The position numbers were made by a program, and so were the translations under genes. 64,000 nucleotides of DNA from an uncultured Phycisphaerales bacterium. GTDB taxonomy: Bacteria; Planctomycetota; Phycisphaerae; Tepidisphaerales; Tepidisphaeraceae. Positions 34,106-39,809 of this stretch are shown here, one piece after another. Every line of letters begins with the position of its first letter. The first letter of the stretch is position 1. The stretch spans positions 1,120,001 through 1,184,000 of the forward strand of contig CAVWLP010000003.1 in NCBI GenBank assembly GCA_963755915.1, written 5' to 3'. Below the pieces are notes generated by a model. That model had not been told where the DNA came from. It saw only the letters and a list, made by a program, of their open reading frames with translations, and did not search any database.

Positions 34106-36598
34106 ATGGACGAGCAGGATAAAAATCCTGGCGAAGAAGTGAAACGCCTGCAGCGCTGCATCAATGACCTGGTCAGCCTGTTGGCCCTTCCCGCGCTTTG
34201 GAGCGGCGGCGACGCATCGCACATCGCTCGCACCCTGATGGCCGTCCTGCAACGCCTCCTCGAACTGGATGTGATTTACGTTTACATCAACGACCCCTCG
34301 AGCGGCGCCGGAGTCGAACTGGCACGCGTCGATCAATCTCCCGCGACGCCGTCACAAGCGCGGGAGATCGGCGCCGAGCTTCATGGCCTGTTGGGCGATG
34401 ATCCGCAGAAATGGCCGTCGCGCATTGAGCGTTCCTTCAGGGACAAAAATATTTCCATCGTGCCAATGCGGCTGGGATTGCAAGGTGAAATCGGCACGAT
34501 CATCGCCGGAACCGAGCGATTAGATTTCCCCAAACAGACTGAAGCGCTTCTTTTGAGGGTCGCGGCGAATCAGGCATTTATGGCGCTGCACCAAGCGCGG
34601 CAGCACAGCGAACAGGCGCGGCTCGCCCACGAACTCGATCACCGGGTCGCCCAGCGAACCGCCGAACTCGCCGCCGCCAACGAACAATTGAAGCTGCAGC
34701 TCGGCCTGCTGGAACTTATCCCCGTGGCGGCGTGGACCATCCGGCCCGATGGAAGGCCCGATTTCATCAACCAGAATTGGGTGGAATATACCGGCCAGTC
34801 TCGCGATTACGTCCTCTCACAACCAGAGGCATGGTTGGCCGCGGTTCATCCTGATGATCGCGAAGTAGCTTCCGCCAGCTATTGGAAGGGGATCCGTACC
34901 GGCAGCGATTTTGCAATGGAAACCCGATTTCGCAGAGCGCACGACGGAGCCTATCGCTGGCATCTCAATCGAGCGATCGCGCTGCGCGATTCAGACGGCA
35001 AGGTCATCAAGTTTGTCGGCACTTCCACCGACATCGAAGATCTCAAACAATCCCAGCAGCAGCTTCGCCACACCGAGGAACGAACCCGAGCAATTATCGA
35101 CACCGCCCTCGATGCGGTCGTCACCATGAATTCTTCTGGAAAAGTCACCAGTTGGAACAAGCAGGCTGAAGTCATATTCGGCTGGACCAGCGACGAAGCC
35201 ATTGGCCTTCGCATGTCGGAATTGATAATTCCGCAATCACTACGGCTGGCGCACGAGCGCGGTATACGCCATTTCCTGGCCACCGGAGAAGGTCCGGTGT
35301 TGCGCCGCCGCATCGAAATCACAGCAATCCGGCGCGGCGGCGTTGAGTTTCCGGTTGAACTGGAAGTCATTCCCATGGAGTTTGCTGGCGACTGGATCTT
35401 CAGCGCCTTCATTCGAGACATCACCGAATCCAAACGCGCCCAGGAAAAGCTCCGCGAAAGCGAGTTTAACCTCCGGCAGATGACGGAAACCATCCCCGAG
35501 ATGCTCTGGAGCGCCACCCCCGACGGCGCAATCGACTACTGCAACACCCGCATGCTCGACTACACCGGTTTTTCCGCCCGCGAGGTCATGGGCAGCGGCT
35601 GGACCAAACTGATTCACCCCGACGACGCTGAATCGGCCGCCCGCACCTGGATCTCCTGCGTGACCAGCGGCGAGGCCTACCGCGTTGAAGTCCGCACCAT
35701 TCATGCCCTCGATCGCACCTATCGATGGTGCGTGATGAACGCACGCCCACTTCTCGACCAGGATGGGCGAATCTTGAAATGGCACGGCACCGTCGTGGAC
35801 ATGCACGATTGGAAACATGCTCAGGAAGCGCTGCGCAATACCCAGGCAGAACTGGCCAATATGGCCCGCGTCATGACCGTGGGCCAGCTCACCGCTTCGA
35901 TCGCGCATGAAGTGAATCAGCCGCTTTCCGGCATCATCACCAACGCCGGCACCTGCCTGCGAATGCTCGATGCCAATCCTCCCAACATCGATGGCGCCCG
36001 CGAAACCGCCCGCCGCACCATTCGCGACGGCAATCGCGCTTCGGAAGTCATCACCCGCTTGCGGGCTCTGTTCACCCGGCGGCAAGCCACCACCGAACCG
36101 GTCGACCTCAACGAAGCGGCCCGGGAGGTCATCGCCCTCCTGTTAAGCAAGCTTCAGAAAGATAATGTCAGTCTGCGATCCGAACTTGCGGACGATCTCC
36201 CCCTCGTCACCGGCGACCGCGTCCAGCTCCAGCAGGTAATCATGAATCTCCTGCAAAACGCTTCCGACGCAATGAACAACGTACGCGATCGATCGCGACA
36301 ATTGCTGATCCAAACCCAGCACCATGATGCAGATCATGTCAGCCTCACCGTTCGGGACAGCGGAATCGGCCTCGATCCACAGACCGTCAACAGGCTTTTC
36401 GACCCGTTTTATACGAGCAAGAACAATGGCATGGGAATCGGCCTCTCCGTCAGCCGATCCATTATCGAAAGCCATGGCGGACGAATTTGGGCAAAGCCCA
36501 ACGATGGTCCAGGCGCCACGTTCTCATTTTCCATTCCGCGCAGTCCCGCCGGCGCAGTCGGCGAGCGTTTAAACGCTCAAGACGTGAGCTCCTTATAG
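34106..36598 (+). CDS. Cytoplasmic multi-PAS sensor histidine kinase
   Basis: Three PAS repeats (HPDD..), IAHEVNQPL, QQVIMNLLQNA, GMGIGL. Confidence 0.93.
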   Translation: MDEQDKNPGEEVKRLQRCINDLVSLLALPALWSGGDASHIARTLMAVLQRLLELDVIYVYINDPSSGAGVELARVDQSPATPSQAREIGAELHGLLGDDPQKWPSRIERSFRDKNISIVPMRLGLQGEIGTIIAGTERLDFPKQTEALLLRVAANQAFMALHQARQHSEQARLAHELDHRVAQRTAELAAANEQLKLQLGLLELIPVAAWTIRPDGRPDFINQNWVEYTGQSRDYVLSQPEAWLAAVHPDDREVASASYWKGIRTGSDFAMETRFRRAHDGAYRWHLNRAIALRDSDGKVIKFVGTSTDIEDLKQSQQQLRHTEERTRAIIDTALDAVVTMNSSGKVTSWNKQAEVIFGWTSDEAIGLRMSELIIPQSLRLAHERGIRHFLATGEGPVLRRRIEITAIRRGGVEFPVELEVIPMEFAGDWIFSAFIRDITESKRAQEKLRESEFNLRQMTETIPEMLWSATPDGAIDYCNTRMLDYTGFSAREVMGSGWTKLIHPDDAESAARTWISCVTSGEAYRVEVRTIHALDRTYRWCVMNARPLLDQDGRILKWHGTVVDMHDWKHAQEALRNTQAELANMARVMTVGQLTASIAHEVNQPLSGIITNAGTCLRMLDANPPNIDGARETARRTIRDGNRASEVITRLRALFTRRQATTEPVDLNEAAREVIALLLSKLQKDNVSLRSELADDLPLVTGDRVQLQQVIMNLLQNASDAMNNVRDRSRQLLIQTQHHDADHVSLTVRDSGIGLDPQTVNRLFDPFYTSKNNGMGIGLSVSRSIIESHGGRIWAKPNDGPGATFSFSIPRSPAGAVGERLNAQDVSSL

Positions 36599-36832
36599 AG
36601 AATTGCCGTCGGAGAATTGGGCCGGCCTCTATCACCCCTCCCCTGGTACTCCTGACCGCCCGACACTTTTTTAAGTTGGGAGACGAATTCAGCGATCGCG
36701 TATCCCCACCCCACACATGTATCCGGCGCGCTCATCGCCAGCGAAACGCCGCCGCATATTGCCTTTTAGGGCTGGACGGTTAGATGGCATGTTGGTTGTC
36801 GGGCTAGCCACCGTCGACTAAACCCGACAACC

Positions 36833-37972
36833 ATGAAACACAATTCTTCTAAAGGTAGCCGCAAGGCCTCCCAAGTTCGAGGGGAGAGAGTCTCGAAGCC
36901 CAATCAGTCGCACGAGGTGATCAAACTCGGCGTGGATACCCACAGCCAGCAATATACCTTCGCACGGATGGTCGATCATCAGGGGATTCAACCGGCCCAA
37001 AAACTCTCGCCGGCCGTCTTCATCGAGTTTCTCAAAAAGCAGCTGACGCTGGCCAAACGCGTGGTGATGGTCTACGAAGCCGGTCCCTACGGCTTCGCGT
37101 TGCACCGCGAAGCCACCGCCCTGGGCGTAGAGTGCCTGGTCTGTGCCCCCGAACGTCTGTCCCGCGGCCGCAAGAGAGTCAACGACAAGATCGACGCCAC
37201 CGAACTGCTCTCGCGTCTGGACCGGCATCTCGCCGGCAACACGACGGCGCTGCGTCTGGTGCGTGTCCCCACGGTGGCCCAGGAGATCCACCGCCGCCTG
37301 GGGCGCGAGCGCAACACCTACCGAAAGGAACGGCAGCGCTGGATCGCCCGTGGACGAAGCCTGCTGCACAGCCTCGGCATCCATCGCCCGGGAAAATGGT
37401 GGGAGCCGCTGGCGTGTGAGCCGCTGCTGAAAAAGCTGGAAGAACTCTACGGCTCAGAACTGATCGAACCGATCCGCAAGGAGCTTGCCCGCGACCTGGA
37501 GATGGTAGAGATGATGGACCAGAAGCGAGATGAACTGACCCGCCAGCTCTGCGCGGAGGCCAAGTCCCGCGAATCGGCCCGGATCAAGGGAATCGGACAC
37601 CTCAGCTATGAGCTGCTGGATCGTGAGATCGTCGACTGGAATCGCTTCCAGAACCGCCGGCAGATCGCCAGCTACACCGGGCTTTGCCCTGGAGAATCCT
37701 CCTCAGGCCAGAGCCGGATGAATCTGTCGATCGACAAACATGGCAACCGCCGACTGCGCACGGTGCTGGTGGAACTGGCGTGGCTGCTGCCCAAGTTCCA
37801 GCCGGAGTATTTTCGTCTGAAGCGCTGGAAGCAGGTCTTCGAGAACCCCGGAGCCAGAGCCATGCGCAAGAAAGCCGCGGTGGCCTTGGCGCGGCAACTG
37901 GCGGTGGACCTGTGGCGGATCAAAACCGGCCGGGTCAAAGCGCAGGATCTGGGCTTGAAACTGGCAGCGTAA
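36833..37972 (+). CDS. IS110-family DEDD transposase/recombinase
   Basis: LGVDTH, YEAGPYG, NDKIDA, IKGIG, ASYTGLCP..SSG, KHGN..LR, KKAAVALARQL. Confidence 0.92.
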   Translation: MKHNSSKGSRKASQVRGERVSKPNQSHEVIKLGVDTHSQQYTFARMVDHQGIQPAQKLSPAVFIEFLKKQLTLAKRVVMVYEAGPYGFALHREATALGVECLVCAPERLSRGRKRVNDKIDATELLSRLDRHLAGNTTALRLVRVPTVAQEIHRRLGRERNTYRKERQRWIARGRSLLHSLGIHRPGKWWEPLACEPLLKKLEELYGSELIEPIRKELARDLEMVEMMDQKRDELTRQLCAEAKSRESARIKGIGHLSYELLDREIVDWNRFQNRRQIASYTGLCPGESSSGQSRMNLSIDKHGNRRLRTVLVELAWLLPKFQPEYFRLKRWKQVFENPGARAMRKKAAVALARQLAVDLWRIKTGRVKAQDLGLKLAA

Positions 37973-38298
37973 AAAGCCGGCCAAGGTTGTCCCCGAACTT
38001 CTGGAGCCTGGATGGACGACGGATAAAGAGCTTGGAATAAAAGTGAAAGAGACGAGCCACGGTGTAACGCGCCCGTTTTCCCCTATGAGCGCCCTTGAGC
38101 GTTCGGCGGTTAGATTGGGTCAGCGTGAACCGCCTGCAACGGACGTATTAGACCATGGTGTACTGGCAAACCGCCAGGTACGGATAGCAGGAAGAGCGTT
38201 GCCGCAATGATGGCAACAGCCCATGCAGAGCGGACACTGACAGGCCGAGCAACAGCTTAAAAAGACAAAAGAATAAAGGCGGCGAATGCGGCCCACAC
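37973..38298 (+). ncRNA. Candidate bridge/seek RNA region of the IS110 element
   Basis: Long non-coding end containing ttcccct (38078-38084) and cggttag (38107-38113), matching the two target flanks on opposite strands. Confidence 0.5.
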
Positions 38299-38498
38299 TT
38301 GACAACCAACATAGCAGGGGAAGGGAAAGAGGGTGGAGGGGGTGCGGGGGAGGCGGGAGAAAAACCTTGGGGCCTTATGGGTTGTCTCCCGCCTCCCCTG
38401 CATTGCTTTTGCATTTGTCTTCAAAAGAGCCGGCCGCTTACTCCTCGAACTCAAAAAATGTGTCGGGCGGTCAGGTACTCCGGGGGAGGGTTGGGGGC

Positions 38499-38528
38499 TC
38501 TACTGCTCCACTTTCTACTGCTCCACTT
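38499..38528. repeat. Tandem 15-bp direct repeat
   Basis: tctactgctccactt x2. Confidence 0.7.
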
Positions 38529-38740
38529 TCTCGCGTAGCGCTGGGCATTGGCGCGACCAAAGTAATCACTTGGCGGCTCGAACCAATACCAAAGTACTAT
38601 GGAGCTTCGCGAAAGTGTCGCATATGCTGCTTGAAATGGGTGTACTGCATAACCACCGTGTCCAGCACAACGGATTTTTTCTCGCAGTCCCGGCACTAAG
38701 ACTTGTCTCGCCAAAACAGCGGAGATCGTGAGGAATCGCA

Positions 38741-39127
38741 ATGGATAAGCGAGCACTGGTTTCCGTTGTGGATGACGATGAATCCGTTCGCGAGTCGCTC
38801 CCCGACCTGCTCGGAGAACTCGGCTTTGCCGTGAAGGCGTTTAATTCCGGCGAAGCGTTTCTCGCTTCTGAATCCTTGCAGCAGACCGAATGCCTCATCC
38901 TCGACATCGCCATGCCGGGGATGAGTGGCTTTGATGTGCAGCGGGAATTGAAAGCCCGCCGCCAGCAGATCCCAATCGTATTTATCACCGCCCACAAGGA
39001 TGCAACCGCCCGGCCGGAGGTGCTCGCAGACCACGCCGTCGCCTGCCTCTTGAAACCGTTCAGCGACACCGCCCTGCTCCAGGCGATTCGAACCGCCTTG
39101 GGATCGCCCAAAATAAATGGCACGTAA
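38741..39127 (+). CDS. Single-domain response regulator
   Basis: VSVVDDD, LDIAMPG, FITAH, LKPF. Confidence 0.92.
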   Translation: MDKRALVSVVDDDESVRESLPDLLGELGFAVKAFNSGEAFLASESLQQTECLILDIAMPGMSGFDVQRELKARRQQIPIVFITAHKDATARPEVLADHAVACLLKPFSDTALLQAIRTALGSPKINGT

Positions 39128-39173
39128 ATTAAACCGCGCGTAAACTAAACGGCACGAAAATTGAGGTGAGTCC

Positions 39174-39809
39174 ATGTCAGATAACATGCCGATCGTATTT
39201 GTCGTTGACGATGATATCTCGGTGCGCGAATCGCTGGAATCGCTCATCCGCTGCGAAGGCTGGCAGCCGCAAACCTTCCTCTCCGCGGATGAATTCCTCG
39301 CCCACCCTCGCGCCGCGACGGCTAGCTGCCTCGTGCTCGACGTGACCCTGCCGGGCCTGAACGGCCTCGATTTACAGCAGCGCATCGCCGCCGACCGAAG
39401 CGATATGCCCATCATCTTTATCTCCGGTTTTGGCGATGTCCCCAAAACGGTCAGAGCCATGAAGGCTGGAGCGATTGAATTCCTCACCAAGCCGTTCAAC
39501 AACGACGTCCTGCTCAGCGCCATCCGTCAGGCAATCAAGCGCAGCCAATCAACGATCGTCGCTCAAAATGAGCTGCGACAGCTCCAGGATCGCCATGCAT
39601 CGCTGACCACCCGCGAGCGCGAGGTCATGCACCTGGTCGTCTCCGGCCTGCTCAACAAACAGGTTGGCGCCGAACTCGGCATCAGCGAAATCACCGTGAA
39701 GGCCCACCGCGGCAAAGTCATGGAAAAAATGCAGGCCGAATCCCTCGCCGATCTGGTAAAAATGGCCGAAAAACTCCGCACCGCGACGGCGCCCAGGTCG
39801 ACCCAATAA
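39174..39809 (+). CDS. FixJ/NodW-family response regulator (REC + LuxR HTH)
   Basis: [43 protein letters not shown]. Confidence 0.94.

Follow-up and report, generated by a model that had tools for sequence, protein, structure and literature searches.

Does the 3′ non-coding region (NCR) of the insertion sequence at positions 36784–38315 encode an RNA that selects the site into which the element moves? All positions refer to the window, the whole 64,000-nt stretch of DNA that was analysed, and all features lie on its forward strand. A sequence-only reading had drawn attention to two short segments, ttcccct at 38078–38084 and cggttag at 38107–38113, which match the two sides of the insertion site, and had taken them for the target-binding loop of an RNA-guided recombinase. 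Both segments are present in the sequence at these positions. As set out below, 36784–38315 is very probably an active IS1111-type element whose 3′ NCR encodes a bridge/seek RNA specifying its target.

The boundaries of the element were set by comparison of occupied with empty sites. A search of the 6.63-Mb, three-contig genome with 36784–38313 returned six copies, 100% identical, and the two bases after 38313 were gc in all six, which places the end of the element at 38315. The insertion site was identical for all six copies, a single position in a dispersed repeat, with the left flank ...GGACGGTTAG and the right flank GCAGGGGAA.... Unrelated targets at other insertions had been named beforehand as grounds for abandoning the RNA reading; instead, all six copies lie at the same target. 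Occupied sites have the arrangement ...GGACGGTT-AG, then the insertion sequence, then AG-GGGAAG, and unoccupied sites read ...GGACGGTT-AG-GGGAAG. This comparison leaves a 2-bp ambiguity, AG, so that the core is AG and the target CGGTT-AG-GGGAA. One copy of the core, at 36782–36783, ends the left target half (...CGGTT-AG; six occupied versus 12 empty sites), and the other, from the same comparison, lies at 38316–38317. Together, core and empty sites give an insertion sequence of 1532 bp (36784–38315, ATGGCA...CATAGC, the AG core not counted), the joined ends of which would read CATAGC-AG-ATGGCA. These limits replace the TAG core and the end at 38314 proposed earlier. With as many as 2 mismatches allowed, the target reconstructed from the latter, ggacggtTAGcaggggaa, with its shared TAG and right half caggggaa, had 0 matches in the genome. 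Nine matches at 3 mismatches were unrelated.

A genome search with the left flank gave 17 matches, comprising four occupied sites, ten empty sites and three unrelated sequences; the uninterrupted sites read CTTGGACGGTTAGGGGAAG. The 12-mer CGGTTAGGGGAA occurred exactly, as an empty site, 12 times, against 0.93 occurrences expected from base composition, and all 12 fell within one repeat family with a G+C-rich hairpin. The target repeat is a dispersed unit of ~100 nt with a long G+C-rich hairpin. In the window, the remainder of the unit occupies 38318–38421, with hairpin arms at 38343–38366 and 38379–38402, and the same sequence follows every empty site too. A perfect site was found in 18 repeat copies, 12 empty and six occupied, so that about one third are filled. 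Among the contigs of the public sequencing runs used to examine expression, one loose end (X20) reads through ...GGACGGTTAGGGGAAG without interruption and belongs to a related copy of the repeat. An Rfam scan of 36500–38700 with E up to 1 found nothing in the NCR, and its microRNA-like matches to the flanking repeat hairpin were far below threshold.

Several features of the surroundings were noted in passing. A 40-nt inverted repeat, 83% complementary (36633–36672 and 38454–38493), brackets the insertion together with its target repeat, and segments resembling ccctcccccggagtacc adjoin unrelated matches elsewhere in the genome; this suggests, from sequence, a second dispersed repeat family. The insertion is intergenic, with a PAS/histidine-kinase-like ORF on one side (34106–36598) and two response-regulator-like ORFs on the other (38741–39809), as judged by eye from the translations.

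The transposase gene, an ORF for a protein of 379 aa at 36833–37972, was assigned by profile searches. The protein matched the NCBIfam equivalog NF033542, 'IS110 family RNA-guided transposase', scoring 163.8 bits where the cut-off is 140; residues 33–363 aligned to positions 3–337 of the 343-position profile, so that the N-terminus was covered. Residues 250–324 matched the C-terminal model PF02371 (Transposase_20) at E 8e-16, and PF01548, the N-terminal IS110 model of Pfam, gave no match even at E up to 10. In the alignment with relatives D35, E82, D118 and D121 were invariant, with a spacing resembling the D11/E60/D102/D105 described for IS621, as were S291 and G292. A profile built from four relatives matched PDB entries for two transposases in their C-terminal domains, those of IS621 (8wt6, E 5.8e-4) and ISCro4. 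The 379 residues include ~28 additional N-terminal residues.

The IS1111 subgroup is described as having the motif GL-P----S(t)G and a longer non-coding region downstream of the transposase gene (PMC11187229), with subterminal inverted repeats of 7–17 bp (PMC11208160). All three features were found here. The ORF contains the C-terminal sequence GLCPGESSSG. Non-coding DNA amounts to 49 nt upstream of the gene (36784–36832) against 343 nt downstream (37973–38315). A perfect 12-bp subterminal inverted repeat joins ATGTTGGTTGTC at 36789–36800 to its 100% complement at 38301–38312, lying five and three bases in from the element ends. By these hallmarks of its sequence, the element is an IS1111-type member of the IS110 family.

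Both ends carry further signals. At the left end, a perfect hairpin with 11-nt arms (36793–36803 and 36823–36833, in all 36793–36833) abuts the start codon of the transposase gene and could, judging by its position, hide the translation start from read-through transcripts; its arms are present in relatives L008 and L019, and its 5′ arm overlaps the subterminal inverted repeat. In L008 (1345–1400), the ATG equivalent to the start codon in the window is out of frame and the long ORF is already open at the element's first base, owing either to a frameshift or to the use of another start. At the right end, a perfect −35 hexamer, TTGACA (38299–38304), points out of the element and overlaps the right subterminal repeat; it is retained in the right ends of relatives. 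Its −10 partner is weak (CATGTT, 17-bp spacing). A junction promoter has been described for the family, and one cited title concerns Pjunc of ISEc11. The outward TTGACA is compatible with half of such a promoter, a role suggested by analogy with the family.

With the ends in place, the two segments could be compared with the real target. In the centroid fold, and in an RNAalifold consensus of 61 sequences, they belong to a target-binding domain at 38058–38131 that consists of an outer stem, a stem P1 (ACGCGCCCG / UGGGU..GCGU), an internal loop and an apical hairpin, P2. The 5′ side of the loop (38076–38085) holds UUCCCCUA (38078–38085), which complements the top strand of T-AG-GGGAA; the match to the real target is 8 nt, TTCCCCTA being the reverse complement of TAGGGGAA. 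The 3′ side (38106–38113) holds CGGUUAG (38107–38113), in the same sense as left flank plus core, which would therefore pair with the bottom strand; its AG was invariant in 61/61 sequences. In the terms of Durrant et al. (PMC11208160), CGGUUAG would be the left target guide and UUCCCCUA the right target guide. The hairpin reported between the segments was recovered by the centroid fold as P2, UGAGCGC/GCGUUCG at 38086–38105, with GC to AU compensatory changes in 24–25 of the 61 sequences. The two guide matches thus overlap on the AG core and share one internal loop between P1 and P2, with the P2 hairpin between them.

Matches of 7–8 nt might be coincidental, in a region conserved for another purpose such as a terminator, a determinant of mRNA stability or an antisense regulator. 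Chance was assessed by randomising the 340-nt NCR 200,000 times under a first-order Markov model. A core-spanning 7-mer occurred in 3.8% of randomised NCRs for the left-flank side and in 2.9% for the right-flank side, and folding energy was likewise unremarkable: the single sequence showed no excess stability, with z of −1.01 for the whole NCR and −0.77 for 38058–38232. Both 7-mers in the observed order and no more than 60 nt apart, however, occurred in just 0.014%. Coincidence is further opposed by the covariation of guides with flanks, which extends over 48 distinct loops and 31 right-flank hexamers, and by the placement of the variable positions in an internal loop between conserved stems, both described below. 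Taken together, these results make a coincidental origin scarcely credible.

To follow guides and flanks in relatives, loci were collected from three sources. Same-family genomes supplied L008–L010, and a species-representative collection supplied L019 and L020, with titles naming Phycisphaeraceae and Tepidisphaeraceae MAGs. Metagenome contigs gave 323 candidates, 247 of them relatives, of which 80 were kept. The set examined comprised 85 loci: the window, four from genomes and 80 from metagenomes. Loop motifs were found in 69 of the 85, both flanks in 53 and distinct loops in 48. L010, from genome G062, is one of the 48 rows, and no claim hinges on it. The motifs GCGCCCG, AGATTGGG and ACGGATAGCAGG recurred in relatives down to ~42% protein identity. 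The segments between GCGCCCG and the hairpin, and just 5′ of AG-ATTGGG, varied by locus and tracked the flanks. For example, the guide and right flank were GTGATGTCCCCT and AGGGGACATCAC in L029, CCGACCCCTT and AAGGGGTCGG in L008, CACCGGCT and AGCCGGTG in L096, and AGCGAGCT and AGCTCGCT in L061.

The correspondence was quantified by comparison of cognate with non-cognate pairs of loop and flank. Right guides anchored at the core averaged 7.0 nt in cognate pairs versus 3.05 nt in non-cognate pairs, and left guides 5.35 nt versus 2.89 nt. A right guide of at least 6 nt anchored at the core G was found in 39/48 cognate versus 173/2256 non-cognate pairs, so that the covariation in homologs that had been proposed as a check was indeed observed. 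Both guides, with at least 6 nt on the right and at least 5 nt on the left, were found in 26/48 versus 97/2256. The 48 distinct loops span 31 different right-flank hexamers, the relatives not being independent of one another. Short cognate guides also occurred, with fewer than 6 nt on the right in nine of the 48 loops and fewer than 5 nt on the left in 14. End calls in short metagenome contigs rest on motif searches, and some of the short guides may reflect ends miscalled in this way. The guide base facing the core A was often non-complementary, for instance in L019, L026, L030 and L034. From the 48 loops, the programmable span was mapped as up to ~11–12 nt for the right guide and ~5–10 nt for the left guide.

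Some relatives depart from the common arrangement. In L009 and L056, the right guide GACCCCU faces a flank AG-GGTCACC, one G short of a perfect match, which may record insertion at an imperfect site; both loci are without a left end, the contig stopping before it. In L027 (336–371), the left junction contains a tandem duplication of the first 16 left-end bases plus AG (ATGGCATGTTGGTTGT-AG-ATGGCATGTTGGTTGTC). Ahead of this duplication lies the true flank, ...TTCTGT-AG, with an 8-nt match to the left guide; the right flank is a palindromic repeat. From its sequence, this duplication may be the footprint of recombination at a pseudo-site within the left end.

The stems themselves covary. An alignment of 61 distinct RNA regions gave an RNAalifold consensus of 22 pairs, 11 of them with compensatory changes. 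Paired cells on this structure amounted to 96.6%, versus 87.1% after shuffling (0/500 shuffles reached the observed value) and 20–44% when the partners were slid. The outer stem of the target domain was left out of the pair count because the alignment was out of register between two sequence groups; it pairs in both groups. A two-pair helix 6 inside the donor guide was set aside as probably an artefact of conservation. The variable positions fell exactly in the internal loop flanked by conserved stems. The sequence-only reading had held that base-paired segments without conservation would speak against a guide function; the segments proved to be unpaired, in the internal loop, and to vary in step with the flanks. 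Together with the identical targets and the guide order published for IS1111 elements, this covariation supports the target-binding loop proposed from the sequence.

The stems also bear on the nucleic acid involved. Single-stranded subterminal DNA might itself pair with the target, without any RNA, as in IS200/IS605. DNA-guided target choice thus occurs in another IS family, and the sole hint of a transcript here is weak contig coverage of 37950–38173. However, G-U pairs were frequent in the stems of this strand and occurred in about half of the sequences (GU in 30 versus GC in 28 at one P1 pair, and UG in 24 in helix 4). In a DNA duplex such pairs would be mismatches, and the opposite strand would have C-A mismatches in their place; their frequency agrees with an RNA of the same sense as the transposase gene. 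The protein family is moreover named as RNA-guided by NCBIfam. We therefore regard action at the DNA level as highly improbable, and continue with a predicted guide RNA that would have the sense of the transposase gene.

Does such an RNA also read the ends of its own element? Some 65 nt downstream of the target loop, the centroid fold contains a second apical hairpin at 38160–38181 (GUACUGGC...GCCAGGUAC). In the consensus this hairpin, helix 5, had compensatory changes at 4/6 pairs and 99.5% of cells paired. It is followed by GGAUAGCAGG, the core of which, AUAGCAG (38184–38190), equals, in the same sense, the tip of the right end with the adjoining core (CATAGC-AG), as expected of a left donor guide. 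GGATAGCAGG was nearly invariant among relatives. In all four variants of the left donor guide (4/4), the change was shared with the right end of the same element: L061 and L070 have the donor motif ATAGTAG and the right end CATAGTAG, L087 has ATATCAG and CATATCAG, and L083 has ATATTAG and CATATTAG. This natural covariation argues that IS1111-type RNAs also base-pair with their own ends.

The other half of a donor loop is less distinct. CCAU at 38153–38156 complements ATGG, the first four bases of the left end, and is a candidate right donor guide. The candidate tracks the fourth left-end base, with CCAU for ATGG, UCAU or UCAA for ATGA, and GCAU for ATGC (one relative). Where the left end is TTGACA, the complementary UGUCA was seen only in L079, with UGCCA in L094 and AAUCAA in L100. 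With a length of 4–5 nt, few independent events and no pairing to the core, the assignment of CCAU is tentative. A different left-end match, gatggca, had been suggested at 38208–38214. It actually lies at 38209–38215, inside the stem of a variable hairpin (38196–38220 in the fold) that differs in length and sequence among relatives. As a donor guide gatggca was rejected, being absent from L008, L019 and most relatives; it is read as a chance match because the hairpin sequence is not conserved.

It may instead be that the target loop alone is the RNA guide, that the protein reads the ends through the 12-bp subterminal repeats, and that GGAUAGCAGG is a motif for protein binding or processing. 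An 82-nt RNA with target matches only is reported to suffice for movement of ISEc11, end recognition being left open in the available text of that study (PMC11187229). The right donor candidate here spans 4–5 nt, and with GGATAGCAGG almost invariant the signal is mostly one of conservation, not covariation. Against this, 4/4 natural variants of the motif are mirrored in the right-end tip, and the position of AUAGCAG, 3′ in an internal loop beneath a covarying hairpin, parallels that of the left target guide. Durrant et al. (PMC11208160) also describe donor-complementary loops in the IS1111 elements that they inspected. On balance we consider it unlikely that the RNA guides through the target loop alone, and return to a predicted RNA with both a target loop and a probable donor loop.

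IS621-type handshake bases beside the right guide were not seen. Complementarity to the right-end tip would require GC after the CU of this guide, where A/U/G followed by stem is found instead. On the other side, the unpaired A-U that follows the AG of the left guide (38114–38115) equals the first bases of the left end (AG-AT...). The A at position 38114 was found in 61/61 aligned relatives, and U in L079, L094 and L100, whose left ends start with T; these three probably form one clade, so that the handshake-like change represents a single evolutionary event. A tentative proposal, for which we hold some limited expectation, is that the 'long seekRNA' of this clade is a complete two-loop bridge RNA whose left target guide has a product-directed extension. 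In such an RNA, the A-U extension would contact the left junction through a bottom-strand 'handshake', alongside a right donor guide without core pairing, as opposed to the top-strand handshake bases of IS621 (PMC11208158, PMC11208160).

Expression was examined in four public runs, three of them metatranscriptomes and one of DNA, all as contigs. Contigs from RNA libraries cover parts of the transposase gene and 37950–38173 at a depth of 2–4.5, with only one contig over 37950–38173. Metatranscriptome libraries can hold DNA, so this contig was not counted as evidence of transcription. No circle junction was found among the contigs of these four runs, in which transcript ends are not readable. 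A genome search for solo copies of the RNA gene gave none, the motif being confined to the six element copies.

These observations would fit the following pathway, in which RNA production, binding by the transposase, the circular intermediate and the chemistry are modelled on the family. A bridge/seek RNA of ~165 nt (roughly 38058–38225) would be made in the same sense as the transposase gene. The two guides of its target loop would together specify CGGTT-AG-GGGAA in the dispersed repeat, and its donor-loop segments would recognise the circle junction ...CATAGC-AG-ATGGCA. With a single AG, this junction is predicted to read ...CAACATAGC-AG-ATGGCATG... in full. The RNA-bound DEDD/serine transposase would then exchange strands at the AG core, and the circle would be inserted without further duplication.

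The element is a clean example of a known mechanism, the bridge/seek RNA described in 2024, and not a new one. RNA-guided target choice has been established in IS1111/IS110 elements since then, and there is little here that is new in principle for the biology of the family. The locus may well serve as a resource, with six identical copies and twelve perfect empty sites in one genome. A near-fixed scaffold carrying 48 guide loops and 31 right-flank hexamers also maps the programmable positions of an IS1111-type RNA. Annotation of such elements should label their 3′ NCR as a gene for a guide RNA and take their ends from empty sites.

A closely similar known system is IS621 with its bridge RNA (PMC11208160, PMC11208158). 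As in IS621, there are two internal loops, one for the target and a probable one for the donor, left guides would bind the bottom strand and right guides the top, and the transposase is probably a recombinase of the DEDD plus serine kind. Unlike that of IS621, the predicted RNA is encoded in the right end instead of the left, each loop places the right guide 5′ and the left guide 3′, opposite to the IS621 order, and AG takes the place of CT as the core. The element also has 12-bp subterminal repeats, its right donor candidate is without core pairing, and no handshake bases of the IS621 kind are evident.

In its choice of site the element resembles the REP-targeting ISPpu9 and IS621 (PMC12288879), which likewise enter a dispersed palindromic repeat at a specific position and in a single orientation, giving several identical copies. 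It differs from these elements in that the repeat is a ~100-nt unit with a long G+C-rich hairpin. ISPpu9 reportedly has extra copies of its small-RNA gene, whereas none was found for the element here.

The layout agrees with that of the seekRNAs of the IS1111-type elements ISEc11, ISPa11, ISKpn4 and ISPst6 (Siddiquee et al. 2024, PMC11187229); for 93% of IS1111 elements, a bridge RNA has been predicted in the right end (PMC11208160). In the accounts given in PMC11187229, the segment matching the top strand comes 5′ of the one for the bottom strand, with overlapping target matches; the guide order and the overlap are the same here. Also shared are the long NCR downstream of the transposase gene, the subterminal inverted repeats, and conserved stems with variable guides, which amount to natural reprogramming among relatives. 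That study reports 'long' seekRNAs of 145–170 nt and short forms of 70–100 nt. The ~165 nt proposed here would correspond to the long form, and the ~74-nt target domain to the short form. The present element differs in its transposase of 379 aa, against the 330–350 aa quoted for the family in PMC11187229, in its host lineage, with Tepidisphaeraceae and Phycisphaeraceae named in the MAG titles of relatives, in its G+C-rich dispersed repeat target, and in being known from sequence. IS1111 donor loops may already be figured in the supplement of PMC11187229 or in Extended Data Fig. 10c of PMC11208160. In the available text of PMC11187229, donor-matching segments are not assigned and the reading of an element's own ends is left open; the covariation of AUAGCAG with the right end bears on this point.
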